Shown here piece by piece: positions 1 to 40,965 of a stretch of DNA of 64,000 bases. Origin of the DNA: Bacilli bacterium (GTDB lineage Bacteria > Bacillota_I > Bacilli_A > RFN20 > CAG-826); the NCBI GenBank assembly GCA_017940265.1, contig JAGAYY010000025.1, positions 256,711-320,710 on the forward strand, given 5' to 3'. The first letter of the stretch is position 1. Every line of letters begins with the position of its first letter. Made by a program: the position numbers and the translations under genes. The notes beneath the pieces were generated by a model that was not told the origin of the DNA, did no database searches, and worked only from the letters and a program-made list of their open reading frames with translations.

Positions 1-1
1 G

Positions 2-322
2 ATTAATAGTTTTGAAGAATTAACTAAGCGATTAATTGAGATAAGAACCGATGTAGATGATGCTATTAATACATTAGAGCAGGTTCCTAGTACTGGCCCT
101 TCCGAATATGCTATCTATAGGTTCAAGGGAAATAAATCTATATCTATTAAAGACTACTTCGTTGATTCTAATATTTATAATGGGGCTATTTGGGGACCAG
201 AACCAAAATTGATGAGTGAATTAGAGGCTGAAGTAATTATTAAATATTTAGAATTTAGTAATAACGATGAGTATAAATACAGCATCATACATCTGGTACC
301 GGGAGAAACCAAGACTAAATAA
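2..322 (+). CDS. small basic-loop protein, tandem family copy 0 (5'-partial at window edge)
   Basis: Frame open from window edge to TAA 320-322 (own translation; not in ORF track, no Met). Family core AIYRFKGNKSISIKDYF..W.. Confidence 0.45.
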   Translation: MNSFEELTKRLIEIRTDVDDAINTLEQVPSTGPSEYAIYRFKGNKSISIKDYFVDSNIYNGAIWGPEPKLMSELEAEVIIKYLEFSNNDEYKYSIIHLVPGETKTK

Positions 323-512
323 GAAACGACCAATCATCCGAGAATACTACCAACGTAATCTTGATAAGGTTCCGGATTCAAACGCTTATTGGACTACTGA
401 TAAGAGTCGTGCTATGAGATTTAGTGAGGTGGGACTAGCCGATTGTTTTTGGTGGGCCTTAGATTCTATGGACCCATATAATTATGGATATGAAGAAATT
501 TGTGATAGTTAA
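267..512 (+). CDS. small basic-loop protein, family copy 1
   Basis: 81-aa ORF; core YIWYREKPRLNKKRPIIREYY..YWTTDKSRAMRF..GYEEI; overlaps copy 0 by 56 nt. Confidence 0.55.
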   Translation: MSINTASYIWYREKPRLNKKRPIIREYYQRNLDKVPDSNAYWTTDKSRAMRFSEVGLADCFWWALDSMDPYNYGYEEICDS

Positions 513-696
513 AACCAAAGGAAGTAAACGAAAATCTAAGAAAGAATATTTTATAGGAGAATGGCATTTTAGCCCAGATCCTAGAAATGCTACTTTGTTT
601 AACTCTAAGAAAGAGGCCTCTGGTATTAGGTTTAGACTTGAGACCGGAGCTGATACTTCTTGTGAGATCTATAAGATATTAGAATGGGATACCTAG
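484..696 (+). CDS. small basic-loop protein, family copy 2
   Basis: 70-aa ORF; core FVIVKTKGSKRKSKKEYF..RNATLF..EA. Confidence 0.6.
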   Translation: MDMKKFVIVKTKGSKRKSKKEYFIGEWHFSPDPRNATLFNSKKEASGIRFRLETGADTSCEIYKILEWDT

Positions 697-935
697 TCTA
701 TAAGGAGGGTGGTAGAAATAAACTTTCTATAATTCGATTCTACTTCAGGGAGGATACCGCTTCTAACTTGAAGTTTAGATTAACTAGAGAAAGAAAGGAA
801 GCTACTATATTTCCTAACTACGAAACTGCCAATAAAGCTCTCCACGATTATATTACAAAGTGTTTTTGTTTTGGCTGTGTGGATAAACCTGGAACACCAT
901 TTGGAATAGAAGATGAATTTGAGGAAATGGATTAG
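684..935 (+). CDS. small basic-loop protein, family copy 3
   Basis: 83-aa ORF; core LVYKEGGRNKLSIIRFYF..RKEATIF..GIEDEF; 13-nt overlap with copy 2. Confidence 0.6.
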   Translation: MGYLVYKEGGRNKLSIIRFYFREDTASNLKFRLTRERKEATIFPNYETANKALHDYITKCFCFGCVDKPGTPFGIEDEFEEMD

Positions 936-1227
936 TAGGTTTTTCTCTGAATCCCCATCCTTCCCTCCTCCACCATTAATTTCTTATTATATCGTTATCT
1001 ATGTATTAAAAGGACGAAAGAAAAAGTCTAGGAAAAGGTGGTGGTATGCAGGAGAATATAAGGGAGAACCAGTTTGGACAATAGATCAAGACGCTGCTAA
1101 GAAATTTGATGAACATAGTGAACACGGAGAAATCATGTTTATAGTAAAAGACCTATACGCCCGAACTCCGGAAGCCTTAGAGGTTGGTTATGTCAAGTTA
1201 CGCTATCAAGAAAGGACGTGGAAATAA
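913..1227 (+). CDS. small basic-loop protein, family copy 4
   Basis: 104-aa ORF; core IVIYVLKGRKKKSRKRWWY..VWTIDQDAAKKF. Confidence 0.6.
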   Translation: MNLRKWISRFFSESPSFPPPPLISYYIVIYVLKGRKKKSRKRWWYAGEYKGEPVWTIDQDAAKKFDEHSEHGEIMFIVKDLYARTPEALEVGYVKLRYQERTWK

Positions 1228-1360
1228 AAGATGGCCTACTAGGTGGTGGACTAGTAATGGTTGGGGTCCTAGAAGAGAAGCTACCATATATGACTATGAT
1301 TCTGCTCTTCTAATGACATTAATGATACATGATAATTGCCAAGTTTTTAAAGTGGATTAA
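1190..1360 (+). CDS. small basic-loop protein, family copy 5 (56 aa, below ORF-track cutoff)
   Basis: Own translation: MSSYAIKKGRGNKRWPTRWWTSNGWGPRREATIYDYDSALL..*; ATG 1190, TAA 1358-1360; fills the gap between copies 4 and 6 and carries the family motifs. Confidence 0.45.
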   Translation: MSSYAIKKGRGNKRWPTRWWTSNGWGPRREATIYDYDSALLMTLMIHDNCQVFKVD

Positions 1361-1610
1361 GGGACTAAAGAAAAAGAAAGAGCCTACTATAATACATCGA
1401 ACATTCTGGCTTATCCGACTTTCTGGAAATAAACGAAAATCTGGAAAACTATATTATACTAGGGCTGAGAAAAAGTGGGTAGATAAAAATTCAGCTACTA
1501 GATTTTTTAGTCCTAAGGATGCAGAAAATATTACCAAAGCACTTAAACTTATCGGCTATGACTGCAGAGTTGAAGAAGAAATTCAGAATATTCCGATTAA
1601 TAGGAAATAA
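1329..1610 (+). CDS. small basic-loop protein, family copy 6
   Basis: 93-aa ORF; core FWLIRLSGNKRKSGKLYY..NSATRFF..DAENI..GYDCRVEEE. Confidence 0.6.
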   Translation: MIIAKFLKWIKGLKKKKEPTIIHRTFWLIRLSGNKRKSGKLYYTRAEKKWVDKNSATRFFSPKDAENITKALKLIGYDCRVEEEIQNIPINRK

Positions 1611-1815
1611 AAAGAAAAAGAGAAAATTATACTTTGATGCAAGAAACCCAGATATTCCGACTTTTAGTCAAAAAGAATATATATTTACTAGTACTGAATC
1701 AATAGTAAGAAAAGCTGTTGTTAGAATATTAGATTTTCATCCAGAAGCAAAACTAGGATATGAAGAGGTGGATAGTAATGACAACTTGGGGATCACAAAA
1801 GAAAAAGACTCTTGA
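1558..1815 (+). CDS. small basic-loop protein, family copy 7
   Basis: Core FRIFRLIGNKKKKRKLYF..LGYEEV. Longest ORF starts at 1519; the internal ATG at 1558 gives a shorter overlap. Start uncertain. Confidence 0.5.
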   Translation: MTAELKKKFRIFRLIGNKKKKRKLYFDARNPDIPTFSQKEYIFTSTESIVRKAVVRILDFHPEAKLGYEEVDSNDNLGITKEKDS

Positions 1816-1993
1816 GTATATATGTAGAACAGAAGATAATACTGCTTTTACATTAACAAAAGAAAAATCAGAAGCATATTTATTTGATGACTTTAAAGTT
1901 GCGGCTGATCTAAGGGCCAGCATAATGAAACTCTATTATGGAAAACGAGTTATTATCAAAGAAACAGATTTTAATATCATATCGAGGAAATAA
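1760..1993 (+). CDS. small basic-loop protein, family copy 8
   Basis: 77-aa ORF; core WIVMTTWGSQKKKTLEYI..SEAYLF; 56-nt overlap with copy 7. Confidence 0.55.
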   Translation: MKRWIVMTTWGSQKKKTLEYICRTEDNTAFTLTKEKSEAYLFDDFKVAADLRASIMKLYYGKRVIIKETDFNIISRK

Positions 1994-2156
1994 AAAGAGA
2001 TCATTTTCCGGGTATATCCAACATATTGGGCCTCTTAAAACTAAAATAACTAAAGACAGAAAGGAAGCTACTATATTTTCTGATCTTTCCTCCCTGTTTC
2101 TAGCCATCAAAGTAACCCCTGGAAGAACGAAAACAAAAAATTTGAGTGAAAGTTAA
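1938..2156 (+). CDS. small basic-loop protein, family copy 9
   Basis: 72-aa ORF; core ILISYRGNKKRSFSGYI..RKEATIF; 56-nt overlap with copy 8. Confidence 0.55.
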   Translation: MENELLSKKQILISYRGNKKRSFSGYIQHIGPLKTKITKDRKEATIFSDLSSLFLAIKVTPGRTKTKNLSES

Positions 2157-2175
2157 TTCTTTCACTCTTTTATTT
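2144..2175. terminator. bidirectional intrinsic terminator at the convergence of + and - gene trains
   Basis: Perfect 9-bp stem GAGTGAAAG(2144-2152)/CTTTCACTC(2159-2167), loop TTAATT, followed by TTTTATTT and preceded by an A-run. Both converging stop codons lie inside it. Confidence 0.6.
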
Positions 2176-2497
2176 CCACACCAAAATAAAACCACAAGAT
2201 ATACTTGAGCTCAGGAAGTGTAGGATCTTCGGAATAAGGAGATTCTATATATCTTGGAGTATTAATCACTTGATCTAATATTTCATATTTAACCCATCTC
2301 GGACCAAATAACTTCAACCCAGGGAGACTATGAAACAAAGATACTCCCATATACTGAATTCCCTTAAATATTCTAGGACTTAATAGCCTAAACTTTTGAC
2401 CTTTACCTTTTCCAATAATTTCTAGGTAGAGTCTTGGTCTTATTTTAACATAATAGATAATTACTGAACCACATACTATAACCCAATATTTATACAT
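2162..2497 (-). CDS. hypothetical protein with N-terminal hydrophobic segment
   Basis: 111-aa ORF directly downstream of the flotillin gene; N-terminus YWVIVCGSVIIYYV. Confidence 0.5.
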   Translation of the reverse strand: MYKYWVIVCGSVIIYYVKIRPRLYLEIIGKGKGQKFRLLSPRIFKGIQYMGVSLFHSLPGLKLFGPRWVKYEILDQVINTPRYIESPYSEDPTLPELKYILWFYFGVEIKE

Positions 2498-2539
2498 AGA
2501 AAATGAGAGAGTCCTTTTTTTTTGAACCCTCTCATAAAT

Positions 2540-4102
2540 TTATTTAACAACAACGCCAGTATCGACTGAACCATCACCCTCGATCTTAACATTACGATCG
2601 GTTTTAGCAGCGATAGTATTGGTCTTAAGAATGTCGGCCATATCAACACCAGTCACGTCCTTCATAACATCCATGGTCTGTTTAATTACAGAAGGAACAT
2701 TACCTGCAAATCCTGCAGCCTCAGTTCCAGTAGTACCATAAATCTTGATATCACCAATCTTACCCATTGGTTCAGCAATACTTCGTGCAACCTCTGGCAT
2801 AACCTTTTCTGTCATCTTGGTTAGAATATCAATTACAGCGACATGACCATATTTCTCATAGGCTTCTGCTTTCTTCTGCATAGCTTGAGCTTCTGCCTCA
2901 CCCTTAGCCAGGATACCGGCTGCTTCTGCCTCTAATCCTGCTTGTTTAGCCGCAGCCTCAGCTTTACCCTTCGCTTCAATACCTGCAGCTTCCTGAAGAG
3001 CAGAATACTTATCAGCATCAGCTTTAACCTGAATAGCTTTAGCCTCCTGTTCAGCTAAATATGCCTTAGCTTCAGCCTCACGCTTCTGTTGTTCAAGTTT
3101 TGCCTGAGCATCAATCTCTGTCTGATATTTCTTAGCATCAGAGTTTACTTGAGTTTGATACTTTTCAGCATCGGCTTGAGCATTAACCTGGGCCTTAAGT
3201 TCATTTTGCTTAATTTTGATCTTTTCCTCAGAAAGAACTTGTTCACGCTTAGTTTGTTCAATCTGGGCATCAACAGTTTTAGTGTTGATAGTTTTTTGCT
3301 GTTCCTGCTTCTGAATTTCATATGCAGCATCAGCTTCAGCTTTCTTTGTGTCAGAGACCTTTTTAAGATCTGCTTTTTTAATTTCAAGCTCATTATTACG
3401 TTCAGCAATCTCAGTCTCTGTCTTAACTCTCACATCATTTGCTGTTTTCTTTGCTTCCTGTTCAGCAACGGCAATGTCACGTTCTGCATTTGCTTTGGTA
3501 ATAGCTGCATTCTTTCGGATAGCATAAGTATTATCAGCACCTAAGTTCTCGATAAGTTTATTTGAATCAGTTATGTTCTGAATATTACAAGAAATAACTT
3601 CAAGACCAAGTTTTGCCATATCCTTAGCAGCTTTTGCCTGAATTTCATCTGAGAACTTATCCCTGTCCGTGATTAAATTTTGGAGGGTTATGGCGCCAAC
3701 CACCTCTCTCATATTTCCCTCTAATGAATCCTTAATCTCAGAAGCAATCTGGGATGGATTCATGTTAAGAAAGTTTTTAGCGGCTAATCTTGTACCAGCT
3801 CCATCAGGTAAAGCTCTTACTTTGCACACAGCATCAACCATAACATCAATAAAATCATGCGTTGGTACTGGGATAGAAGTTTTTACATCCACAGAAACCT
3901 GGCCAAGAAACACCTTATCAAGACGTTCCAAGATAGGAATCTTAAATCCACCTGTACCAATAAGAACTCGAGGTTCTTTTTTAAGACCTGATAAAATGTA
4001 GGCATAAGATGGAGGAGCCTTAACATACATACTGAAGGCTAGTACCACCAATAGAACTACAACAATTGCAATTCCAATTAATACTAAATTTGAAGTAAAC
4101 AT
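2540..4102 (-). CDS. flotillin-like SPFH/Band-7 membrane protein
   Basis: 520 aa. N-terminal TM helix, SPFH core (..ILSGLKKEPRVLIGTGGFKIPILERL..GLEVISCNIQNITD..), long Ala/Glu/Lys/Gln coiled coil (AEAEAKA.., GLEAEAAGILAKGEAEAQA), C-terminal flotillin-type tail. Confidence 0.9.
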   Translation of the reverse strand: MFTSNLVLIGIAIVVVLLVVLAFSMYVKAPPSYAYILSGLKKEPRVLIGTGGFKIPILERLDKVFLGQVSVDVKTSIPVPTHDFIDVMVDAVCKVRALPDGAGTRLAAKNFLNMNPSQIASEIKDSLEGNMREVVGAITLQNLITDRDKFSDEIQAKAAKDMAKLGLEVISCNIQNITDSNKLIENLGADNTYAIRKNAAITKANAERDIAVAEQEAKKTANDVRVKTETEIAERNNELEIKKADLKKVSDTKKAEADAAYEIQKQEQQKTINTKTVDAQIEQTKREQVLSEEKIKIKQNELKAQVNAQADAEKYQTQVNSDAKKYQTEIDAQAKLEQQKREAEAKAYLAEQEAKAIQVKADADKYSALQEAAGIEAKGKAEAAAKQAGLEAEAAGILAKGEAEAQAMQKKAEAYEKYGHVAVIDILTKMTEKVMPEVARSIAEPMGKIGDIKIYGTTGTEAAGFAGNVPSVIKQTMDVMKDVTGVDMADILKTNTIAAKTDRNVKIEGDGSVDTGVVVK

Positions 4103-4132: not shown

Positions 4133-4420
4133 TTATAAGGAATATACCCTTTCTCCAATTTTAAGAACATAATAAATCTTTCCAGGTTCGGCTCCCCAAT
4201 CTGGATTTCCGGATTTCACTTCTATTCCGTTAAGTTTAAATCTCATTCGTCTTGATAGGTCACTGCTCTTAGGATAACCAAGAGTAAATTCAACGAAGTC
4301 ATAGTGTTTTCCAACTAGTCTCTTCGTCCAATATTCTGTTATTTCTCGGTACTCTTCTATTTTGATACCAGCCTCAATTAATCGATACCATATTTCTTTA
4401 AGTGATAAGTATAATATCAT
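4133..4420 (-). CDS. hypothetical protein (possible ASCH/PUA-like fold)
   Basis: 95-aa ORF; LSLKEIWYRLIEAGIKIEEYRE..YW resembles the ASCH N-terminal pattern; weak, by eye. Confidence 0.55.
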   Translation of the reverse strand: MILYLSLKEIWYRLIEAGIKIEEYREITEYWTKRLVGKHYDFVEFTLGYPKSSDLSRRMRFKLNGIEVKSGNPDWGAEPGKIYYVLKIGERVYSL

Positions 4421-4604
4421 AATGATCTACAAAATTATCATTATCTAGGTCCTTAATAGCTTCTTCCTCAGTATCAAATCTACAGGCACAAACATGATGA
4501 CTGGTAAGATTAACGAAACAATATTTACCAGAGGCACGATCAAACATAATCTCTGTTTCTCGCACAGATCCATCCTTTCTAGTGACTATTATTCTTCTCG
4601 GCAT
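4398..4604 (-). CDS. hypothetical protein
   Basis: 68-aa ORF in overlapping minus-strand gene train. Confidence 0.5.
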   Translation of the reverse strand: MPRRIIVTRKDGSVRETEIMFDRASGKYCFVNLTSHHVCACRFDTEEEAIKDLDNDNFVDHYDIILIT

Positions 4605-5217
4605 CTTTTCCCTCTAGGATTAGTTGTATATCGAATGAACTCTTCCAAGCTAGATCTTCTGGTATATCACTAGCACTTACACTTAGTTCACCAGTAAATT
4701 TATCCGTTGAAACCCACACACCTTCCCGAGGATAATCATCATTCTTTTCAAAGTAGAGATTTATTTCGTAGTCATCATCATAAATTTCCGGATCTATAAT
4801 TCCAGCACGATCTGTAGTATATCCAAGTACATCAAGAACAGGGTACAACTCCTCTATAACCCACTTCATATTCTTTGCATGTGCCATAGCGATTTTATAT
4901 TCCTGCAAGATCGGATTACAGACTACCTTAATAGTTTCTTCGAGTATATCAAGACTATATTTATTACGTATGTCCGGCTCCTTAACTAATAGAATTCCCG
5001 GACTTCCAAATTCATCATCATTTGTATAGAAAGTGTTATTTGAGATAAAGATGCTATCTACCTCCCCTGATGTATTATCTACATTAATCCATACAAACCT
5101 ATCATCCTTCCCCTCATAATAAAAAGAAGTGAATTCCTCTTCTATATCAGTATTATCTGGAGAAGGTTTATATCCGTATAACCTAAGTATCTTTTCGTAT
5201 GTATTTATAGACTGCAT
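4579..5217 (-). CDS. hypothetical acidic protein
   Basis: 212-aa ORF in gene train, no recognisable motif. Confidence 0.7.
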   Translation of the reverse strand: MQSINTYEKILRLYGYKPSPDNTDIEEEFTSFYYEGKDDRFVWINVDNTSGEVDSIFISNNTFYTNDDEFGSPGILLVKEPDIRNKYSLDILEETIKVVCNPILQEYKIAMAHAKNMKWVIEELYPVLDVLGYTTDRAGIIDPEIYDDDYEINLYFEKNDDYPREGVWVSTDKFTGELSVSASDIPEDLAWKSSFDIQLILEGKDAEKNNSH

Positions 5218-5614
5218 AATGTTCTAATAAAGGTAATCCATTTATTCTCTGTTTCAGTATCGACTTAAGAACTTTATCCGGATTTCTGAAGTGAATACAT
5301 TTTCCACGTTCTTTATCTGTTATCTCACTACCAACGTTTATACTAATTGAATCAATCTCCTTAACCGGTATTTTAGATGCAGTAGTATATTTATTTTTCC
5401 TGATAAAATCTAATACTGCTGTATATCTGAAATTTATAGTAATCATGGAGGGTATCCAAGAAGTATCTACCTGATCTAATGCTTCCCAGATAGTTTTCCC
5501 CTCAGACATACTTTCCTTGAGATTACTAACTAATACATGAGGGTCGATTCTTCTTGTATCAGGTAACTCAAGATAAAACCAAAGAGACTTTCCTATAAAT
5601 CCAGAATCAATCAT
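5183..5614 (-). CDS. hypothetical protein
   Basis: 143-aa ORF in gene train. Confidence 0.65.
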   Translation of the reverse strand: MIDSGFIGKSLWFYLELPDTRRIDPHVLVSNLKESMSEGKTIWEALDQVDTSWIPSMITINFRYTAVLDFIRKNKYTTASKIPVKEIDSISINVGSEITDKERGKCIHFRNPDKVLKSILKQRINGLPLLEHYAVYKYIRKDT

Positions 5615-6015
5615 AAGGCATCAATCGCATTAATCAATATTTCTCGCTCATCTTTTCCTATATAAGCGTCTGTCACAATTTTCTTTAATCGTTTCTTAAG
5701 AACCTCGAGGTCTTGGATAGGGCACATCTTTATTTCATGTGTCTTCTCATCCATATAGTAACCGAGAGATTCCAACAAAGATTTCATATCATCTACCTGT
5801 TCCTCTTTAGCTACTCTCCAAAAATGAGGCCAAGTATCATCATGTCTTTTAATTCCCCACTTAGTAATTCGTGTGACAGAATCCATTTCAATTCCTGGCG
5901 GCGGATATTCACATCTAGATCCCAAGCCTTCATAGATAGCATAGTACGGTTCCCCAAAACTATCGTTATCTCTGTTCACTAAGATCTCACCTTTCTTATA
6001 ACTTAGAGGCCTCAT
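5611..6015 (-). CDS. hypothetical protein, tandem paralog 1 of 3
   Basis: N-terminus YKKGEILV..YAIYEG and C-terminus LKKRLKKIV..EREILINAIDAL are shared with the next two ORFs. Confidence 0.7.
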   Translation of the reverse strand: MRPLSYKKGEILVNRDNDSFGEPYYAIYEGLGSRCEYPPPGIEMDSVTRITKWGIKRHDDTWPHFWRVAKEEQVDDMKSLLESLGYYMDEKTHEIKMCPIQDLEVLKKRLKKIVTDAYIGKDEREILINAIDAL

Positions 6016-6410
6016 ACAAGACTATCGATTGCATCTGTTAATATAGCTTTATCGGTTTCAGACCTGTCAGACTCGACAACAAGTTCTAATAGTTTATTCT
6101 TAAGAACTTCCATATCGAAAATTCTATTAAGTCTAAGTTCACCTTTTAGATTTAAGTGATAACCCATTTCTGTCAAAATATCAAGGGCAGTTTCTAATTC
6201 CATACCCTTAGCACTTTTCCATTGATGGTTCCAGATTTTCATATCTCTCCAGACCCTACCAACAGAATCGAGTAAATATGCAGAACTTAGCATTTTCCCA
6301 TGAGCTTCACCAATTTCCTCTTGATAGATACAAAACCTAGGCCCTGTTGTTCTCGGAGGGTCAGCTGGTTGGATCAATATCTCTCCCTTCCTGAATTTTG
6401 CTGATTCCAT
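6012..6410 (-). CDS. hypothetical protein, tandem paralog 2 of 3
   Basis: FRKGEILI..FCIYQE..LKNKLLELV..DKAILTDAIDSL. Confidence 0.7.
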   Translation of the reverse strand: MESAKFRKGEILIQPADPPRTTGPRFCIYQEEIGEAHGKMLSSAYLLDSVGRVWRDMKIWNHQWKSAKGMELETALDILTEMGYHLNLKGELRLNRIFDMEVLKNKLLELVVESDRSETDKAILTDAIDSLV

Positions 6411-6813
6411 CTAGTAAGTATTGTTTTTCTGTCTCTTCAATATCAGAACACAAGATAGCTTCAAATAATCTAGACTTAAGGTCCTTGGGAATACCAGGTC
6501 TAGGAATACTTCGATATTCTCCCTCAATCCATACCTTCCCTTGATCCTTAAGATATCTATTTATAGTTTCTACCTCTCCTGGACAAGCTAACTTCCAATT
6601 TGGGACATAAGTACTCATCCATTCCTGTCTACCTCCATCCCAAATATGATCTACCCAACCACGATTCTTTTCTTTTTTACTGTAACCCTGAAAAATACCA
6701 AGAACATGGATTGGATTCTCAATACCAAGATCTATATCAGCAGAAACATAATCACCTTTCTTGAACCCTGTATGTACTGTAGACATATACACTCTCAATT
6801 TCTGGTTCATCAT
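6361..6813 (-). CDS. hypothetical protein, tandem paralog 3 of 3
   Basis: FKKGDYV..LGIFQG..LKSRLFEAI..EKQYLLDGISKI. Confidence 0.65.
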   Translation of the reverse strand: MMNQKLRVYMSTVHTGFKKGDYVSADIDLGIENPIHVLGIFQGYSKKEKNRGWVDHIWDGGRQEWMSTYVPNWKLACPGEVETINRYLKDQGKVWIEGEYRSIPRPGIPKDLKSRLFEAILCSDIEETEKQYLLDGISKIQEGRDIDPTS

Positions 6814-7348
6814 AGAGATAGTCTGTCATGGTGTTTTGGTCACCTATATAAGATCCCCATTTCTCCCATCTCCAACCATCTCTGGGTGGTTCATCTTTCT
6901 TGCGGATCTCCGACATTATAATAACGAATTCAAAACCCTTCCATTTTTCCAAGGCCTTAATTCTTTTATCACGTTCGAGGATTTGCTGGTAATTATCACA
7001 TACACCATAAGGATAGGAGATCCATACCTTACCTTTCTCGTGCTCTCCAAGTCTTTTAATGAAACCAGTACTAATACCTAGGAGACTAGATAATTTACCC
7101 AGGTTCCTTTTGGTGGGTAGATATTCACAGTTCACTAAATGATATGTTCGCTCAAGAAACATAGGCTTATTAACATCCCAATATTCATATATCCCCGGGG
7201 CTAACTCTTTAAAAACGTCACCTATCTTGAGATCCCGCCACATCCTATATACATCTTCTCCATAATCTCGCCTGAAGTCTTCTAATAATTCAGTGCGACC
7301 AGGAGAACTAACATAATACTCATTCGAATCAAAATATAATTTTTTCAT
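6752..7348 (-). CDS. hypothetical protein
   Basis: Longest ORF runs to 7471 but overlaps the upstream gene. ATG at 7348 (MKKLYFDSNEYY..) follows the stop of the 7375-7686 gene. Confidence 0.6.
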   Translation of the reverse strand: MKKLYFDSNEYYVSSPGRTELLEDFRRDYGEDVYRMWRDLKIGDVFKELAPGIYEYWDVNKPMFLERTYHLVNCEYLPTKRNLGKLSSLLGISTGFIKRLGEHEKGKVWISYPYGVCDNYQQILERDKRIKALEKWKGFEFVIIMSEIRKKDEPPRDGWRWEKWGSYIGDQNTMTDYLYDEPEIESVYVYSTYRVQER

Positions 7349-7374
7349 ATCTAATAATAAGGAAAATAAAAGAA

Positions 7375-7686
7375 CTAGATAACAACATAATCGTTTTCTA
7401 GTTCTATTTCCAAGTATATGTAATAACATCCCGGTAGATCCTCTAGAATCCAAGTTCCTTTTCCAGGACATGAATCTCCGAGAGGCGTCCGAATTATTAT
7501 ACCATCTACCATTCCATTTGGCGTTCGGATTTTATCCATATAAGCATATTCACCAGCAAACTCCAGGATCTCATCATAGTTATCGCCAGTAAATTTAATT
7601 GCCCTATGAACTTTTCCTTTCTTCTTATGATTCCAAGTAGGTCTTAATCGAATCACACCACTACTATTGTTCTTCGTTAAGTTCAA
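7375..7686 (-). CDS. hypothetical protein
   Basis: 103-aa ORF in gene train. Confidence 0.6.
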   Translation of the reverse strand: MNLTKNNSSGVIRLRPTWNHKKKGKVHRAIKFTGDNYDEILEFAGEYAYMDKIRTPNGMVDGIIIRTPLGDSCPGKGTWILEDLPGCYYIYLEIELENDYVVI

Positions 7687-8071
7687 GTTGTTCAGTTTTA
7701 ATTACACTACAATACATAATAGGTTTTCCTGGATGTATGATTATCTCTGAGTTCCCTAAGTTTATTAAATGAGTAGTTAGTTCACCATCAGCAGTAAATA
7801 GACAATCCATTAATAAACACGTATTCCTATTCCCAGAATGTTTTATTATTGAGTAGGCATCATTTGACGGTAGAGTAGCTTGAGTAGGGATAAACCTATA
7901 CAAATGAAATCCAGGAAAAACAAGATCCGACGGAATAATTATATCAGAACACGGAAGGAGGACAGATTCAGGAAGATCATCTGGATAATACACTTTAAGC
8001 ACTACGCCAGATCCAAATATCAGGACTGGATCTCTTGTGTTTCTAATCTTACGGTAACTTAAAGAAATCAT
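7664..8071 (-). CDS. hypothetical protein (weak dUTPase/dCTP-deaminase-like pattern)
   Basis: 135 aa; ..ADGELTTHLINLGNSEIIIHPGKPIMYCSVI resembles the dUTPase beta-barrel motif; weak. Confidence 0.55.
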   Translation of the reverse strand: MISLSYRKIRNTRDPVLIFGSGVVLKVYYPDDLPESVLLPCSDIIIPSDLVFPGFHLYRFIPTQATLPSNDAYSIIKHSGNRNTCLLMDCLFTADGELTTHLINLGNSEIIIHPGKPIMYCSVIKTEQLELNEEQ

Positions 8072-8471
8072 ATACTTCCTCCCAATCTACTTCAGGGTCA
8101 AAACCAAATTTATCATCTATTCCAATATTGAAGTAGAGCTTATCGGAGAAACACTGTAATTCCGTATTTTGTACCTCGGGATTTTCGTTTATCCAATCCA
8201 CCTTGATACCATCTACCTCCAGTCTCTCCTTGTATTTCATTAGCTGATCAGTGTAAGATGAGGACCATAGAATTATTCTTATCTCTTCTCTCCTCGACAT
8301 ATTCCTTAATGTATCGAGGGCTAACGGATAATACTCGTAGGTTTCTATCCTTTCATAGGATGGTCTGAATATAGTTCCATGTATATCAACCAAGACATAT
8401 ATCCTATCCCATCCTTTCTTGGCGGCTCTTTTATACGCTGCACTAAATGCATTCACCAGGTTCATACTCAA
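8049..8471 (-). CDS. hypothetical protein (possible HAD-like nucleotidase)
   Basis: 140 aa; YVLVDIHGTIF resembles a degenerate DxDxT motif I; weak. Confidence 0.55.
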   Translation of the reverse strand: MSMNLVNAFSAAYKRAAKKGWDRIYVLVDIHGTIFRPSYERIETYEYYPLALDTLRNMSRREEIRIILWSSSYTDQLMKYKERLEVDGIKVDWINENPEVQNTELQCFSDKLYFNIGIDDKFGFDPEVDWEEVYDFFKLP

Positions 8472-8682
8472 CTATTACTTTTGTTTTGATCTTACCTTTC
8501 TGTATGTATAAGTAATCAGATATCGACTGCGCTTCTCTATAACTACCATACTTAGCTGAATCATCTTTATTCGGGGTCCAAACAGGATCTTGACTATTAA
8601 CATTCATATCAAAACCTGCAAAATATATTTTTCTTTTTCCGAACTTTTTATTTCTAGGCTTCAACCGAATTATACAATCCAT
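8443..8682 (-). CDS. small basic-loop protein, minus-strand family copy M1
   Basis: CIIRLKPRNKKFGKRKIYF..VWTPNKDDSAKY..EA; same family as 2-2156. Confidence 0.6.
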   Translation of the reverse strand: MDCIIRLKPRNKKFGKRKIYFAGFDMNVNSQDPVWTPNKDDSAKYGSYREAQSISDYLYIQKGKIKTKVIVEYEPGECI

Positions 8683-8933
8683 GCTTCAACTCCCTTAGGA
8701 TATTCGATTATCTCTGGTCTCTTAACGCCATCAATCTTTGTTTGAAGTATTTCCAATGATCTAGAGACTTCTCCATGATTATCATATAACCTCATTTTCC
8801 TGGGATCTATAGTCCATCTAGCGGTAAAATTCAGGTTTAGTAAAAAGGGCCCATGAAAGTCTACCAAGTATATTACCTTAGACTTCTTTTTGTTTCCCAT
8901 CCGACTCCTTATGTACCAGATCTTTTTCTTCAT
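8670..8933 (-). CDS. small basic-loop protein, copy M2
   Basis: IWYIRSRMGNKKKSKVIYL..RWTIDPRKMRLY; 13-nt overlap with M1. Confidence 0.6.
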   Translation of the reverse strand: MKKKIWYIRSRMGNKKKSKVIYLVDFHGPFLLNLNFTARWTIDPRKMRLYDNHGEVSRSLEILQTKIDGVKRPEIIEYPKGVEAWIV

Positions 8934-9138
8934 ACGATGTTACAAAAGAGCCCTTAATCCCAAGAATTCCCATAAGTACCATAGTATCTAGGTGACCTTT
9001 AGCTATAACCAAAGAATCGAAAGTGATATTGGTAGTTCCTTGAAAAATAGGAATAAACTTACCACTATCTGGATCTCCCCATATACCATTAAAATATTGT
9101 ATCCTTCTCTTGTGCTTCCTAGCAATTACATATTTCAA
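8878..9138 (-). CDS. small basic-loop protein, copy M3 (divergent)
   Basis: YVIARKHKRRIQYF..; 56-nt overlap with M2. Confidence 0.5.
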   Translation of the reverse strand: MKYVIARKHKRRIQYFNGIWGDPDSGKFIPIFQGTTNITFDSLVIAKGHLDTMVLMGILGIKGSFVTSYEEKDLVHKESDGKQKEV

Positions 9139-9356
9139 CAGTAACGATCCTCCTCTATTTTGATGGGGTATAATCCGAAGATTCCAAGTTCACATATAAC
9201 ACCCAAGGATAGTCTATAATCAGGACATCTATACGCCTCTTGAAAGGAACTAGTCCACTTCACTACTGGTTCTGGACTCTTTAGGTAACGTTTCGATTTC
9301 TTTTTCTGATATCCGCTTCTTACGATTAACCAATTTAACATACAGCCATTTTCCAC
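9135..9356 (-). CDS. small basic-loop protein, copy M4
   Basis: WLIVRSGYQKKKSKRYL..KWTSSFQEAY; alternative start at 9341. Confidence 0.55.
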   Translation of the reverse strand: MENGCMLNWLIVRSGYQKKKSKRYLKSPEPVVKWTSSFQEAYRCPDYRLSLGVICELGIFGLYPIKIEEDRYC

Positions 9357-9456
9357 CAGTATAACCTAACCTAGCAAGATTAAGTTTATCGGTGATCCAA
9401 GAATAACACCAAAAAACTATTATTCCTGACAGAAAACCTACTAGAAACCAAATCAA
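9250..9456 (-). CDS. possible small membrane protein
   Basis: 68-aa ORF; N-terminal TM (IWFLVGFLSGIIVFWCY). Overlaps M4 by about 100 nt in another frame, so extent is doubtful. Confidence 0.35.
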   Translation of the reverse strand: MIWFLVGFLSGIIVFWCYSWITDKLNLARLGYTGGKWLYVKLVNRKKRISEKEIETLPKESRTSSEVD

Positions 9457-9821
9457 TGTTCTGCCTCAATTATATAGGGATAAAGACCAAACACCGGAAA
9501 AGAATATCCTCTAGTCTTTATCTTATAAGTTTTTCCTATCTCTAACGTACCAAATGCCTTAGAAGACATTAAACCAGATGGTGTTATCTCATAGGTTCCT
9601 TTATCTGTTCCTACCAGGTATTTGTAGGATAAGGATTTATTATCCTTACTACCTGTTAATTCTTGTTGAGCATTAACAGATATAACCTTAGCTAATACAA
9701 TATCCTCCTTAGTAAATTCAAGAATAGCAGAACAAATAATAGCTACCAGAAGTCCAAGTACTAATAATCCTTTAGTCGCTTTCATATTTTTCGAGTTCTT
9801 TATTAATTTCAGATAATCCAT
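9453..9821 (-). CDS. membrane-anchored hypothetical protein
   Basis: 122 aa; signal-anchor GLLVLGLLVAIICSAIL. Confidence 0.65.
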   Translation of the reverse strand: MDYLKLIKNSKNMKATKGLLVLGLLVAIICSAILEFTKEDIVLAKVISVNAQQELTGSKDNKSLSYKYLVGTDKGTYEITPSGLMSSKAFGTLEIGKTYKIKTRGYSFPVFGLYPYIIEAEH

Positions 9822-9884
9822 AATCTTCTGCAGCTCTTACACGACCGAGTTGTATAAGTCTGTGAATAATTCCACGTTTTTCTT

Positions 9885-10157
9885 TTAAGTGTTCGTATCT
9901 TGACATAATCCAATATTATAATGTTCTCTCAATAGGTCAAGCGTATCCTGAACATGGGTAGGTATACTGACTAGTGGTTTAAGGATTGGATCGATGTCGT
10001 CTATATGAACATCAACTACCTCTCCATCCTCACGTAGAACAGTTACATTATTTGTATGATATCCCAGTCCCATTAATACATAGGTTGAACCAAGAATTCT
10101 ATGTCTAACTTTTACTCTGAATGGAAGCAATAAAGCTAATAAATCTTTCTTACTCAT
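9885..10157 (-). CDS. hypothetical protein
   Basis: 90-aa ORF. Confidence 0.6.
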   Translation of the reverse strand: MSKKDLLALLLPFRVKVRHRILGSTYVLMGLGYHTNNVTVLREDGEVVDVHIDDIDPILKPLVSIPTHVQDTLDLLREHYNIGLCQDTNT

Positions 10158-10575: not shown

Positions 10576-10822
10576 TGATGAGCCATTCCTTAAGGGTTTT
10601 CTTGAATTCTCCGTTTGTATCATTGACTAAATCATACAGAAAACCGCTCGGAATATAAGCTATCTGTCTGAAAAAGCATCTTCCATCTGCCATCATCCTG
10701 TAGTCACCGTATAAGTCTCTTGGTTTCTTTTCCAGGAGGCCAAGAGTCTTCACACACAACATATGATCATAGCCTATTAAGGTAACCGATATACCACTAG
10801 TCCCTGTCATCTTAATTCTCAT
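10535..10822 (-). CDS. hypothetical protein
   Basis: 95-aa ORF. Confidence 0.5.
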   Translation of the reverse strand: MRIKMTGTSGISVTLIGYDHMLCVKTLGLLEKKPRDLYGDYRMMADGRCFFRQIAYIPSGFLYDLVNDTNGEFKKTLKEWLINAFGKVEELRSRS

Positions 10823-11310
10823 AGGTCATTAACATCTATGTAGTCAATACCATAGTTTTCCGCACACTTCAGATCAGAGTCAGAGAATTGGCCTGGTTTA
10901 CCTGAGGCATCACCAATCATTAACATCTCGGGTTTAGAAACTACAATTCCTAAGGTTGGTAGAATCTTAAGACAGGTATGATCCAACATCCCCGGGTTTG
11001 GTTTTCGATAAGGATCAGTCTTGGAGTTTCTTGGACAATATACCCATCGGACTGGAACCCCTAGGTACTCTTCGAAGGCTCTCACCAGGTACTCGATCTT
11101 GCCCTTAACCCAATTTTCATGATTAACTTTACCGATTGCTATACCTCCCTGATTTGTTACTATAACCAATACTTCAGGACTCATTTCCCTGATTTTATCC
11201 AAGACATCAAACTTAATTTTCATATCCCAAATACCCTTAGGGAATGAACTACCAGTGAGGGTATCTATCAAAGTACCGTCTAGGTCCGCAAATACAACTT
11301 TCTTTTTCAT
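10819..11310 (-). CDS. HAD-superfamily (subfamily IIIA-type) phosphatase, polynucleotide-3'-phosphatase/GmhB-like
   Basis: Motif I FADLDGTL, motif II VTNQGGI, Lys motif YRKPNPGML, motif IV IGDASG..DSD. Confidence 0.8.
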   Translation of the reverse strand: MKKKVVFADLDGTLIDTLTGSSFPKGIWDMKIKFDVLDKIREMSPEVLVIVTNQGGIAIGKVNHENWVKGKIEYLVRAFEEYLGVPVRWVYCPRNSKTDPYRKPNPGMLDHTCLKILPTLGIVVSKPEMLMIGDASGKPGQFSDSDLKCAENYGIDYIDVNDL

Positions 11311-18452: not shown

Positions 18453-19559
18453 TCATACTATTTCCCATTTAACTTCTTGTGCTTCGTAATATTCTGGGAG
18501 GACTAGAGAAGATATCATTTTATCTATTACCTCTTCCGGAACAATAGCCTCCCTGGAATGATTTCTCTTAGTTTGTTCTTCGGGCGTAGTCTCCAGATAT
18601 ATGATTTTGACTCTTGCCTTATAGGATTCGAAAAGATCTATTAGTTGTCCTCTCGACCTACCTAAGTTGGTTGCATTCCATACGAAGGATTCTTTTCTCC
18701 TTAGGTATTCTTTTGCTTTCTCCTTGGCGGCCTGAATTATTTTACCGTCGATCGAACCCGGCTTAAGTCCTAATTCCTCCCTAATCTGATCCAAGGAAAT
18801 TACGGCCAGATCAGAGTTCTTCTTTATCCACGTGTCCTTGCCTGTTCCCGGAAGACCACACATAAGGATTACTTCTCCCCAGGTGTCATCAAATAAGGAA
18901 GGTCTAGAACAATTCCCCGTTCCGAATCCTAGGAACTTATGATCTGAATAAGGATCTTCTCCAAGGTGTCCCATCCCCTCTAGTAATCCTTCATCTTCTG
19001 CCAAGACCCTGAAATATTCAATATTTTCCAAGGAAACTTCTTTATCGGCGCAGATTCTTCCTTGGATATCTGCTTTCGAGAGTCTATACAAGAGATCTAA
19101 ATTAAAATCTGGGCTGAGGAATCCGGTAGCAGCAATCCGATAGAGTTTAGGAATTCCGTCACTATCGGTTAAAGCATGTGGAGGAAAACCATGATACCTA
19201 ACGAGAGAGACAACCGCTTCTCTGTACAGCATAGCCTCTTTAGTTCCTACTAATCCGAACTTTTTCCATAATATCTCACGGGTCATTTTTGCACCGATGA
19301 TAGAGTGATTTGGACATACTATATCACCGTTGCCTAGGTCTTGAGTGGTTCTGATTTTCCCGATATCATGAAGAAGAGCTGCAATCCTGAGGATAGATTC
19401 CTGATATTCGGTAAGGCCAATAGTGTCTAGAGAATCATAGACTAGTCTGGTATGTGTATAGACATCTCCTTCTCCATGGTATTTCTTGTCTTGTGGAGTT
19501 TCTTTCAAGGAGTCGACCAGACCGGATAAACAATTCTCTTCTATTTCCTTATACTTCAT
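18453..19559 (-). CDS. HD-Pnk type RNA/DNA end-healing enzyme (N-terminal HD phosphoesterase + C-terminal P-loop polynucleotide kinase)
   Basis: HD domain: HGEGDVYTHT.., LLHDIGK. Kinase: ILMCGLPGTGKDTWI. Start taken at ATG 19559 (longest ORF starts at 19601). Confidence 0.8.
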   Translation of the reverse strand: MKYKEIEENCLSGLVDSLKETPQDKKYHGEGDVYTHTRLVYDSLDTIGLTEYQESILRIAALLHDIGKIRTTQDLGNGDIVCPNHSIIGAKMTREILWKKFGLVGTKEAMLYREAVVSLVRYHGFPPHALTDSDGIPKLYRIAATGFLSPDFNLDLLYRLSKADIQGRICADKEVSLENIEYFRVLAEDEGLLEGMGHLGEDPYSDHKFLGFGTGNCSRPSLFDDTWGEVILMCGLPGTGKDTWIKKNSDLAVISLDQIREELGLKPGSIDGKIIQAAKEKAKEYLRRKESFVWNATNLGRSRGQLIDLFESYKARVKIIYLETTPEEQTKRNHSREAIVPEEVIDKMISSLVLPEYYEAQEVKWEIV

Positions 19560-20235
19560 ACACAAGTTTAGCTCGTTTCCAGTTTTTAGCCCAGAAGACA
19601 TCGGTTCTAACGTGATGAGGTCTTACGTACTTGCAAACATGGCGTGGAAATTCGTCCCCAAGACCAAATCCTTCGGTAGTTCTCATTACCACGCCCTCTT
19701 TCTCGATTCCGTAGGTTGAAGGATATTTCATTTGTTCGAGAATAAGTTCTTTAATTTGTTCCTCTGATTCTGCTACTCCTCTCCAAAGAACTGGGACATG
19801 TGGTATTTGTAAGAGCTCAGAGAATTCGGTCACTTCATCCCAAGAATACCATCTCTTATTATCCCTTACGGCGAAGAGATGATAGTAGGAAGGAAGTTTA
19901 TTGTACTCGATTGAATGAATTCCGAAGAGGTTTTCACCATAGATTAGTTCATCTTCACCAATCAAGTCCTTAAGGGTCCAGAATATACCACCAGTTCCCC
20001 ACATATTCCTAGACCAATCCGAGCGTGTGGGGGCGGCATGGGATCTGGCATAAACATCAAAGTGTGAACAAGACGTATTTTCTCCATCTAATTTCTCGGT
20101 TAGGACTATTTCTTTTCCTCTATAATCCTCAAACCAGCCATCATGGAGTAGTCTGTCATCTGATGTAGTCCCAGGTGAAAATGGGACATGATACGTTCTA
20201 GGATACTTCTGATTATCTATTATTTCTTTTTCCAT
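19549..20235 (-). CDS. ATP-dependent RNA ligase (RNA_ligase / nucleotidyltransferase-only type)
   Basis: YPRTYHVPFSPG.., motif I EKLDGEN, motif III IYGENLFG, motif IV EGVVMR, motif V KYVR. Confidence 0.85.
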   Translation of the reverse strand: MEKEIIDNQKYPRTYHVPFSPGTTSDDRLLHDGWFEDYRGKEIVLTEKLDGENTSCSHFDVYARSHAAPTRSDWSRNMWGTGGIFWTLKDLIGEDELIYGENLFGIHSIEYNKLPSYYHLFAVRDNKRWYSWDEVTEFSELLQIPHVPVLWRGVAESEEQIKELILEQMKYPSTYGIEKEGVVMRTTEGFGLGDEFPRHVCKYVRPHHVRTDVFWAKNWKRAKLVYEV

Positions 20236-39093: not shown

Positions 39094-40965
39094 ATGAAAT
39101 TGAAAACTAATAAACATAAGATTATGAATAAAGTAAATTGGAAAAATGAATTATCTAAACTTCGAGAATATATTGAAGTGAAACATATGACATTCGAGGA
39201 GGTTGGAAAAATATATAATAAGCCTAAAGGACAAATCGAAGTTGTATGTATAAGATATGGTATTAAATATGCCCATAGAAAAGTTTTCCCTTGGAGAGAA
39301 GATGAAATAAATACTGTCAAAGAGGAATTGCTTAAAGGTAAAACCTATGAAGAAATTTCTGAGTTACTACCAGGGAGAACCAAAAATGCGGTAAAGTCTC
39401 TTTATGAATATCATAGTAAGGAATTAAATTTAGTAAAACCTAAAAAACCAAATGGTATTACTAGTGAAAATGAAATAAAAATAAAGGAACTAGTATTAGA
39501 TGGTTATCCTGACCCTTGGATAAAACAATTAACTGGAGTATCTACTGATTGGATTTTAAAAGTAAAAGAAAAATACAATATTATTCAACCTAGTATAGAA
39601 GAACTACAAGATAAAGGTATATTTTTTACTAGTACTCCTAATATTACGCGTATAGAAACTGAATTGACTAAAGAAAAATTAATTTTATTACTGAATGACA
39701 ACGTTTCTATATGTGAAATGTCCAGAAGATATAGTATAAATATAAACACTATAAGAAATTTAGTAAGACGCCTTGGTTGGAAAGATGAAAAACTTGCATC
39801 TGCTAAAAATCTTAAACGCAAATTATATAAAGAGATACATGGGATAATAAATCCTACAGAAAAGCAACTTAATAAATCTTTCTTAAGCATATTTACTAGA
39901 GATTATATTCTAGATCTTCTCATAAGAAATGAATATAGTCTTAAGAAATGTTCATTAGAGCTTGATAATATAGATCCGAAATGTATATCTAGTGCTATAA
40001 AGAAATATAATATTGATATACCAGAAGATTTTGATTATAAAAGAAAATTTGGTCCATCATTTCAAAGTAGAATGGAGAACAATAGGAAAGAGTTTAGAGA
40101 ATATATGAATATTTATTTTCCGGATTATGAAATTATAGAAGATTATATTGGATCAGAAGAACATATAAAGCTAAGATGCAAAATACATCCGGAAGAAATT
40201 ATAGTAACCACTCCTTACTCTATAAAAACTATATTTACTTTACATGATGAAAACGGAAATATAATAGGAACTAAGCACCTCTGCAAAAAGTGTAAAGACC
40301 TAGAAGAAATCGCTAAAAAACTAACTGTTATTAAAAAAGAAATAGAAGAAACTTTTCCTGGTAAATTTGATCTTTCTGAATCAACTATAGAAAAAGTTTT
40401 TGTTTCTGAAAAATCTGGGCATAAATTAGTACTTACTAATATAAAATGCAATAAATGTGGTAATGTGTTTAAAGCAGATATTTATGACATTAGAAACAGT
40501 GGAGTTTGTAAGTTCTGTGATCTAAAATCTTCTGGAGAAATAAAAACAAAAACAGTTCTAGATAGACTTGGGATAAGCTATACAGAACAAAAATTAAACA
40601 ATCATGCAGTTCCCAAAGAAATAAGATCAATGGGTATATTTATAGATTTTTGTTTGGAGTATAATGGAAAAGAAATATGGATTGAATATAATGGTTCTCA
40701 ACATTATAAGTTTTCCACTAAATTTCATCAGAATATGGATGAATTTAAAAATAATATTCTACGTGATCTTTATGAGAGAAAATATTGTGAAGAGAATGGA
40801 ATACTTCTTATAGAAATACCATATACTTTCGATACTATAGATAAAATCCAAAATCTCTTACAGAAGGTAATTATTGATGGTCAGGATATAAATACTATCA
40901 TTGACTATAAACCTTTCTATGAGAAGATTAATAAACTTGGTGGTATATATGCAAATAATACGTAA
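39094..40965 (+). CDS. free-standing homing-endonuclease-like protein (multi-HTH + Zn-ribbons + PD-(D/E)XK/Vsr-like C-terminus)
   Basis: At least 5 HTH-like modules (e.g. MTFEEVGKIYNKPKGQIEVVCIRYGI; VSICEMSRRYSININTIRNLVRRLGW). CKKC/CNKCG..CKFC. C-terminus SSGEIKTKTVLDRLGI..FIDFCL..IWIEYNGSQHY. Markedly more AT-rich than terL. Confidence 0.6.
   Translation: MKLKTNKHKIMNKVNWKNELSKLREYIEVKHMTFEEVGKIYNKPKGQIEVVCIRYGIKYAHRKVFPWREDEINTVKEELLKGKTYEEISELLPGRTKNAVKSLYEYHSKELNLVKPKKPNGITSENEIKIKELVLDGYPDPWIKQLTGVSTDWILKVKEKYNIIQPSIEELQDKGIFFTSTPNITRIETELTKEKLILLLNDNVSICEMSRRYSININTIRNLVRRLGWKDEKLASAKNLKRKLYKEIHGIINPTEKQLNKSFLSIFTRDYILDLLIRNEYSLKKCSLELDNIDPKCISSAIKKYNIDIPEDFDYKRKFGPSFQSRMENNRKEFREYMNIYFPDYEIIEDYIGSEEHIKLRCKIHPEEIIVTTPYSIKTIFTLHDENGNIIGTKHLCKKCKDLEEIAKKLTVIKKEIEETFPGKFDLSESTIEKVFVSEKSGHKLVLTNIKCNKCGNVFKADIYDIRNSGVCKFCDLKSSGEIKTKTVLDRLGISYTEQKLNNHAVPKEIRSMGIFIDFCLEYNGKEIWIEYNGSQHYKFSTKFHQNMDEFKNNILRDLYERKYCEENGILLIEIPYTFDTIDKIQNLLQKVIIDGQDINTIIDYKPFYEKINKLGGIYANNT

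Follow-up and report, generated by a model that had tools for sequence, protein, structure and literature searches.

A tandem array of overlapping paralogous genes for small lysine-rich-loop proteins in a probable uncultivated jumbo phage

We describe here a tandem array of overlapping genes at the start of a 64,000-nucleotide (nt) stretch of contig JAGAYY010000025.1 (positions 256,711 to 320,710 of the forward strand), referred to throughout as the window. Ten plus-strand open reading frames (ORFs), designated o1 to o10 in order, tile window positions 2–2156 without a gap, with each adjacent pair overlapping out of frame by 13–56 nt, and encode diverged members of a single family of small proteins with a lysine-rich loop. 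The carrier is probably an uncultivated jumbo phage from ruminant-gut metagenomes that has been binned as a bacterium. Lineage-specific expansions of very small domains are already known from giant phages, but the family in this array is itself new, and its systematic, inherited out-of-frame overlaps are the unusual feature of the array.

A family of overlapping genes under purifying selection

A preliminary description of this DNA had proposed that ten plus-strand ORFs in this region share one architecture, and this is borne out: the ORFs are present at the positions reported, and the alignments display a hydrophobic strand, a G-x-K-K-K-S loop, an aromatic strand, W-T, A-T-h-F, a helix and a terminal strand. 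The single 5'-partial ORF that it mentioned is that at 2–322 and its 56-amino acid (aa) ORF is that at 1190–1360, and both are confirmed. Because pairwise similarity between members is weak, the family was tested formally with hidden Markov models (HMMs), each built from nine members and used to seek the omitted one among 701 six-frame segments of the window. Nine of the ten are recovered, with E values (E) of 6e-8 to 4e-3, and are outranked only by other family copies on which the models had not been trained. The tenth, o6, is not recovered (E 0.61) and is a marginal member.

All ten ORFs are open in a relative, L007, that is 86% identical at the nucleotide level over the array; start codons are kept, apart from an ATG to GTG change in o2 that leaves the ORF intact, and all insertions and deletions are in frame. 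The ratio of nonsynonymous to synonymous substitution rates (dN/dS, by the Nei-Gojobori method) in the annotated frame is 0.08–0.33 for nine of the ten ORFs and 0.55 for o8, the C-terminus of which is replaced in L007, compared with 0.46–2.6 in the other two frames. The overlap segments are more highly conserved than single-coding DNA (91.3% and 84.8% identity respectively; Fisher p = 0.001), as dual coding predicts. The array members are thus homologous to one another beyond chance, their ORFs are conserved and selection in the annotated frames is purifying, as befits a paralogous tandem gene array, and all ten ORFs, including o6, are genes under purifying selection. Their coordinates, with the leave-one-out E value and dN/dS ratio of each, are as follows.

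o1: 2–322, plus strand; family member, 5'-partial in the window; E 5.5e-4; dN/dS 0.18
o2: 267–512, plus strand; family member, 81 aa; E 3.6e-3; dN/dS 0.33
o3: 484–696, plus strand; family member, 70 aa (68 aa from the ATG at 490); E 6.4e-8; dN/dS 0.15
o4: 684–935, plus strand; family member, 83 aa, with an acidic C-terminal tail; E 8.3e-5; dN/dS 0.11
o5: 913–1227, plus strand; family member, 104 aa, with a Pro-rich N-terminal extension; E 5.8e-7; dN/dS 0.08
o6: 1190–1360, plus strand; short divergent member, 56 aa; E 0.61; dN/dS 0.16 (1.0 and 2.6 off frame)
o7: 1329–1610, plus strand; family member, 93 aa, with an N-terminal amphipathic helix; E 7.9e-6; dN/dS 0.28
o8: 1519–1815, plus strand; family member, 98 aa (85 aa from the ATG at 1558, the start chosen by gene callers); E 1.8e-3; dN/dS 0.55
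o9: 1760–1993, plus strand; family member, 77 aa; E 1.4e-3; dN/dS 0.25
o10: 1938–2156, plus strand; family member and last gene of the operon, 72 aa; E 1.2e-5; dN/dS 0.22

The window holds the 3' two-thirds of the array. The DNA upstream was read from contig L001, which belongs to the same genome (99.99% identity; window position 1 is L001 8064) and in which the plus-strand block begins at L001 6906, about 1.2 kb upstream of the window, and five or six further members precede o1. The complete o1 gene encodes 107 aa and starts at L001 8062, 2 nt upstream of the window, and the whole array spans approximately 3.3 kb and contains 16–17 paralogous genes. One upstream ORF, at L001 7577–7759 (MKMRLYKQGHKRTSKRMY...; approximately 490–300 nt upstream of the window), is passed over by gene callers and is a clear family member (iterative search E 2.5e-10). 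It overlaps the 5' part of a 95-aa gene call at L001 7638–7925, the real start of which is probably an internal ATG (MCNQDYWLIW...).

Additional copies lie on the minus strand of the window and are listed here with their HMM E values.

8443–8682, minus strand; family member, 79 aa, outside the training set; E 1.6e-4
8670–8933, minus strand; family member, 87 aa, outside the training set, with a 13-nt overlap with the next gene; E 6.6e-6
8878–9138, minus strand; probable divergent member, 86 aa; E 0.28, not significant
9135–9356, minus strand; family member (P0003), 68 aa from the ATG at 9341, outside the training set; E 4.3e-3

These four together with the ten array ORFs are probably the 14 copies to which the preliminary description referred. 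Iterative searching places all 19 members that it recovers in a stretch of about 12 kb, with no copy in the rest of the window (roughly 55 kb), and the family, with about twenty diverged copies in the phage, is larger than had been described. The consensus of the 19 copies reads hhIh+..G.KKKS.+.Yh, a variable stretch, W-T, A-x-x-[FY], a helix and a last strand.

Gene callers skip o6 in L001–L006, and o2, o6 and o7 in L007. At NCBI, o6 is annotated as MBP3732464.1 (locus tag J6I84_04385) and o10 as MBP3732466.1 (J6I84_04395), the two genes bounding window positions 1190–2156. If these tags rise in steps of 5, as is usual in the NCBI pipeline, this indirect evidence indicates that two of o7–o9 are absent from the public annotation.

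A short DNA identity within the array was considered as a functional repeat and dropped. The 19-nt sequence AGAAAGGAAGCTACTATAT, encoding R-K-E-A-T-I, is identical at 792–810 in o4 and 2058–2076 in o10, and lies inside a 40-nt segment that is 88% identical; outside this segment the two genes are very diverged. An upstream member encodes the same DEATIF with different codons, suggesting either conservation at the protein level or local gene conversion, and the latter may account for the identity between o4 and o10.

Overlap junctions and the operon

The junctions between genes fall into recurring types. In the first, a 13-nt overlap, the start ATG is formed from x-A-TGG, where TGG is an upstream Trp codon; it is found at o3/o4, at the junction of two genes upstream of the window (up4/up5) and between the minus-strand genes at 8670 and 8443. 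In the second, with overlaps of 38–56 nt, the upstream gene ends at a TAA stop embedded in the codons GGA-AAT-AAA (G-N-K) of the downstream gene, as seen at o5/o6, o7/o8 and o9/o10, and the last two of these junctions have the 14-mer AGGAAATAAAAAGA in common. In the third, the sequence GGATATGAAGA(A/G) encodes G-Y-E-E of one gene and M-K-K/R of the next; it is present at o2/o3, where the C-terminal GYEEI of o2 is dual-coded with the MDMKKF start of o3, and at o8/o9, with a similar arrangement at o7/o8. The recurrence of homologous junction types implies that duplication of the genes carried the overlap with it and that the overlap has persisted. The reading frame moves +1 at eight of the nine junctions in the window.

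We considered programmed frameshifting that fuses neighbours into polyproteins, and rejected it. The same nucleotides encode the last strand (beta4) of one protein and the first (beta1) of the next, so no frameshift can yield both, and each ORF also has its own conserved start.

The array forms a plus-strand island between minus-strand blocks, and two features border its 3' end.

2144–2167, strand not assigned; bidirectional hairpin resembling an intrinsic terminator, with a perfect 9-bp stem, a 6-nt loop and T-runs on both strands, fully conserved in L007
2540–4102, minus strand; SPFH/Band 7-flotillin protein, 520 aa (Pfam 1.1e-19 and 1e-11)

From its sequence, the hairpin looks like the element that closes both the plus-strand operon and the convergent minus-strand gene at 2162–2497. 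A scan for sigma-70 promoters performed no better than on shuffled controls and did not locate the operon promoter, and no Rfam family is present in the window. At the position of the flotillin gene, L007 carries an unrelated 465-aa gene with no Pfam match, and the region just downstream of the array is thus a replacement hot spot.

The array provides a clean natural case of long, conserved out-of-frame overlaps propagated by gene duplication. It should be useful both for studying translational coupling in hosts that do not use Shine-Dalgarno initiation and for better gene calling.

Predicted fold and distant relatives

AlphaFold2 models were computed separately for o3 and o7, with only the paralogues as alignment input. 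The o3 model, with a predicted local distance difference test score (pLDDT) of 87.5, has strands at residues 3–12 (beta1), 15–23 (beta2), 26–28 (beta3) and 59–66 (beta4) and a helix at 40–53, and the o7 model (pLDDT 90.9) has the same core plus an N-terminal helix. The family is therefore modelled as a domain of about 60 aa with beta-beta-beta-alpha-beta topology, in which a long beta1-beta2 hairpin is followed by a short beta3, a 14-residue helix and beta4. The A-T-h-F motif had been taken for the start of the helix, but both models place it just before the helix.

Neither sequence nor structure comparisons place the family among known ones, in agreement with the preliminary description, for which HMM searches and AlphaFold models compared by Foldseek were the suggested checks; the models are confident, and they match no PDB relative. 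Scans of the ten proteins give best E values of 0.064–0.24 against Pfam, all below the cut-off, of 0.009 over 20 residues against PHROG (0.0038 for further members), and of 0.044 against NCBIfam, none of them significant, and no well-known domain is matched. Foldseek against the PDB gives at best E 0.62 (o3) and 0.29 (o7), and a profile search of PDB sequences yields, apart from a coincidental 26-residue motif match to the pilin EbpC (E 7.9e-4), no credible hit. No match was obtained by megablast of window positions 1–2600 against 50,697 phage records, and a query with o5 recovers no related locus in IMG/VR or GTDB genomes. Word-indexed searches of 5.8 billion proteins with the family alignments yield nothing beyond these proteins and their near-identical orthologues.

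Searched exhaustively with HMMER, 1.84 billion representative proteins give 18 matches at E <= 1e-3, of which 15 are from this phage lineage. The lineage-specific expansion of tiny proteins seen earlier from the sequence is real, and matches are essentially confined to the lineage. The remaining three are P0021, P0018 and P0020. P0021 is a 62-aa protein on a cyanophage-like freshwater contig and has the Y-h-I / Y-Y / W-T / A-T-h-F / helix motifs. P0018 (220 aa, three repeats, on a 984-bp contig) and P0020 (1113 aa, about nine repeats) are metagenomic and contain the same domain by HMM in several stretches each (E 2.6e-5 and 8.3e-4 in the search of 1.84 billion proteins), but their domains are fused in one polypeptide, unlike the separate overlapping genes of the array. 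All three keep the aromatic strands, W-T, A-x-x-F and the helix, and have a short non-basic turn in place of G-x-K-K-K-S-x-K. The distant relatives thus share the fold motifs without the long basic loop, which points to the loop as a lineage-specific functional elaboration. DUF2849 (PF11011; gathering threshold 22.5 bits) scores below threshold with P0020 (19.0) and P0021 (16.6) and matches no member in the window.

Within the window, a 68-aa protein encoded at 4398–4604 on the minus strand (MPRRIIVTRKDGSVRETEIMF...RFDTEEEAIKDL) has a similar pattern of a hairpin followed by F-x-T-x-E-E-A. It goes undetected by the family HMM and might share this fold as a very distant relative.

The proposal that the family is novel is supported, but its fold is not unique: Foldseek against BFVD finds many small phage proteins with template modelling (TM) scores of 0.6–0.8. 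These include proteins of Prochlorococcus phage P-TIM68 (A0A0K0KVR3), an uncultured Caudovirales (A0A6J5M523), Lactococcus phage 1358 (D3W0G7) and Vibrio phage ICP1 (ORF150), which have the same size (50–90 aa) and topology. The matches have full-length TM scores of 0.6–0.81, probabilities of 0.9–1.0, E values of 1.7e-3 to 7e-2 and, for nearly all, identities of 11–24%, values at which homology is unproven for 60-residue domains. The look-alikes differ from the array family in being single-copy and in having no extended G-x-K-K-K-S loop, and are themselves uncharacterised. Judging from the models, the fold is probably common among phage ORFans.

The N-terminal domain of HicB / UPF0150-type antitoxins is a topological look-alike, being beta-beta-beta-alpha-beta and of similar size, and one BFVD match is annotated 'Antitoxin' (rank 41). 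Membership of this group was rejected: the ten proteins have no Pfam HicB-family match at E <= 1, and there is no HicB/TTHA1013-type structure among the 50 best Foldseek PDB matches of either model. The array proteins also have no C-terminal DNA-binding domain, unlike HicB. Neighbours inside the operon are all of the same family, although no dedicated search for HicA was run.

Proposed function, alternatives and genomic setting

The conserved positions of the family are the core aromatics and, on the surface, only the beta1-beta2 hairpin tip, which is rich in Lys (G-x-K-K-K-S-x-K). The loop carries a charge of +4 to +8 within 12 residues, the rest of each protein is about neutral, and 16 of the 19 listed members have an isoelectric point of 8.8–11.4. 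Because this tip is the only conserved surface feature, we tentatively favour, with somewhat less than even confidence, a reading in which the hairpin serves as a basic arm that binds a polyanion, nucleic acid (RNA or DNA) being the likeliest. The helix face and the N- and C-terminal tails, which vary, would then set the paralogues apart in partner or specificity. The overlaps themselves suggest that translation would be coupled, with the paralogues produced together from one transcript. A role in host takeover or in protection against the host would be compatible with polyanion binding. The serine of K-K-K-S as a phosphorylation site and the loop as P-loop-like were also considered; there is no evidence for either, and both were dropped.

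Several observations weigh against this reading. Three of the proteins (o1, o2 and o4) are acidic or neutral overall. No significant match to a DNA- or RNA-binding fold is found by Foldseek in the PDB, where phi29 p6 and topoisomerase appear at noise level (E of about 1 or more, TM < 0.4; for phi29 p6, E 5.3 and TM 0.35 with the o3 model, and E 1.0 and TM 0.24 with the o7 model). Neither solved DNA- or RNA-binding folds (such as phi29 p6, HU/IHF or dsRBD) nor anti-defence proteins in the PDB are reached at Foldseek E <= 1e-3, at TM >= 0.5 over the domain or by a profile match. Membranes, polymers of the cell envelope or acidic surfaces of proteins could equally well be the ligands of a polybasic loop with aromatic flanks. 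As to translational coupling, the o8/o9 overlap is lost in L007 and overlap is thus not obligatory.

A more specific version of the nucleic-acid reading is that the overlap-chained operon makes about 17 paralogous basic-hairpin proteins together and in fixed proportions, and that these act jointly on phage or host nucleic acid, as a chromatin-like or RNA-coating set or as combinatorial specificity factors. The dual-coded junctions (GYEE[IV] read as MKK[FW], and the stop inside G-N-K) would then have been selected to enforce co-translation. We consider this version quite unlikely; if true, the co-produced set would establish a new fold for nucleic-acid binding, one without any solved relative.

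The paralogues could instead be diversified inhibitors for host takeover or anti-defence, expanded in an arms race, with each binding and blocking its own host protein, for instance a sensor or effector of defence or a factor in transcription or replication. Small proteins in many diverged copies would suit such a role, as would the confinement of the family to one phage lineage and the context of conflict in which lineage-specific expansions of jumbo phages have been discussed (PMC7824862). The locus is also a hot spot of divergence, being 86% identical at the nucleotide level compared with 96% at window 4149–10137 for the same pair of genomes, and the flotillin gene next to it is replaced in L007. 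However, the low whole-gene dN/dS ratios (0.08–0.33 in nine of ten) reflect purifying and not diversifying selection, and the extra divergence is mostly synonymous (dS 0.22–0.62), so that it looks like recombination or mosaicism and not positive selection. No anti-CRISPR or other anti-defence protein is among the 50 best Foldseek PDB matches of either model, and the generic character of the basic loop, as the sole conserved surface feature, argues for a common class of ligand over many protein targets; overall we regard this role as rather unlikely. Peripheral binding to the membrane or envelope, with Trp, Tyr and Phe beside the polybasic loop inserting at an anionic lipid or polysaccharide interface, possibly together with the neighbouring SPFH/flotillin, is suggested by the W-W-Y or Y-F flanks of K-K-K-S-K-K, by the modelled N-terminal amphipathic helix of o7 and by the position of the flotillin gene directly downstream. 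We think it very unlikely, as the flotillin gene is convergent with the array, not co-transcribed, and does not occur at the orthologous position in L007, which does retain the array; inspection by eye also shows no transmembrane segment or signal peptide in any member.

Even less probable is a role as virion-packaged internal or DNA-condensing proteins, packed into the large capsid and injected with the DNA in the manner of the internal proteins of T4 or the inner-body proteins of phiKZ. Small size and basic charge characterise most members, the contigs of 376–394 kb show a very large genome, and T-even internal-protein loci are also hypervariable, but the N-termini differ and carry no conserved capsid-targeting or protease-cleavage motif, and a 27-kb minus-strand block separates the array from the structural genes (a major capsid protein-like gene at 56164–57624). 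That the ORFs are chance ones, or relics of a single long repeat protein, decaying after frameshifts broke it up, is hardly credible, although multi-repeat single-chain relatives exist (P0018 and P0020, with three to about nine domain copies), the +1 frame change recurs at nearly every junction, and gene callers skip some of the ORFs. Every ORF keeps its own start codon and is open at 86% nucleotide identity, purifying selection is seen in each annotated frame and in none of the others, the overlaps are better conserved than the rest, and o3 and o7 yield confident single-domain models. Moreover, a frameshift at a junction cannot yield beta4 of one domain and beta1 of the next, as both are encoded by the same nucleotides. 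This explanation is thus contradicted for the present state of the array; fission of a repeat protein may have been its evolutionary origin.

Comparison with known systems places the array among expansions and clusters of small phage genes. The SPO1 host-takeover module and the T4 and T5 early ORFan clusters likewise consist of many tiny co-transcribed genes of unknown fold, often variable between relatives, but their genes are mostly unrelated, their timing is known, and they have no comparable chain of 13–56-nt overlaps. The array is, in contrast, one paralogous family chained by such overlaps. A closer likeness is with Bacillus phage G, in which about 35 copies of a zinc ribbon form a jumbo-phage lineage-specific expansion (Iyer et al. 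2021, PMC7824862) that has been read as specific transcription factors or structural DNA-binding proteins (PMC7824862). In both cases one giant phage genome holds a very small domain in many diverged copies, and the phage G proposal parallels the polyanion-binding reading favoured here, function in both being only proposed. The array differs in its beta-beta-beta-alpha-beta domain with a Lys-rich hairpin, which is not a zinc ribbon, and in forming one operon with systematic out-of-frame overlaps; its members have 0–3 Cys and no conserved Cys column, and so do not have the two CxxC-type Cys/His pairs of a zinc ribbon. By itself the array is a well-documented ORFan expansion and not a surprise. 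If a function were established, a role could be given to a fold that recurs in many uncharacterised small proteins of phages in BFVD (among them cyanophages, ICP1 and lactococcal phages), and the known repertoire of domains would gain a small basic hairpin.

The proteins are found on contigs of up to 376,162 and 394,002 bp, in an NCBI record labelled 'MAG: Bacilli bacterium', and record names indicate that the samples are ruminant gastrointestinal metagenomes. The gene at 56164–57624 resembles a major capsid protein gene only weakly; PHROG matches in the window comprise an HNH endonuclease, a D5-like protein and a polynucleotide kinase, most of the long ORFs in the window match neither Pfam nor PHROG, and the window encodes no tRNA. 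Since the 41 long ORFs of the window have A-rich leaders and almost no Shine-Dalgarno motif, the host would appear to be of Bacteroidota type rather than one of the Bacilli.

Several other genes in the window deserve mention. A second, unrelated family of three adjacent paralogues of 132–150 aa lies on the minus strand at 5611–6015, 6012–6410 and 6361–6813; neighbours match one another by BLASTP at 1e-15 and 2e-6 and have a common C-terminal L-K-x-+-L ... A-I-D-x-L motif. A polynucleotide kinase/ATPase-like protein (18453–19601, minus strand; PHROG 505, 2071) and a PNK3P-type phosphatase (10819–11310, minus strand; Pfam PF08645 on the identical gene in L001) are encoded in the same minus-strand block and look like an RNA/DNA end-repair module. 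The plus-strand gene at 39094–40965 encodes a 623-aa protein with a D5-like N-terminal region and an HNH/homing-endonuclease region (PHROG 323, 559, 7140, 9084).

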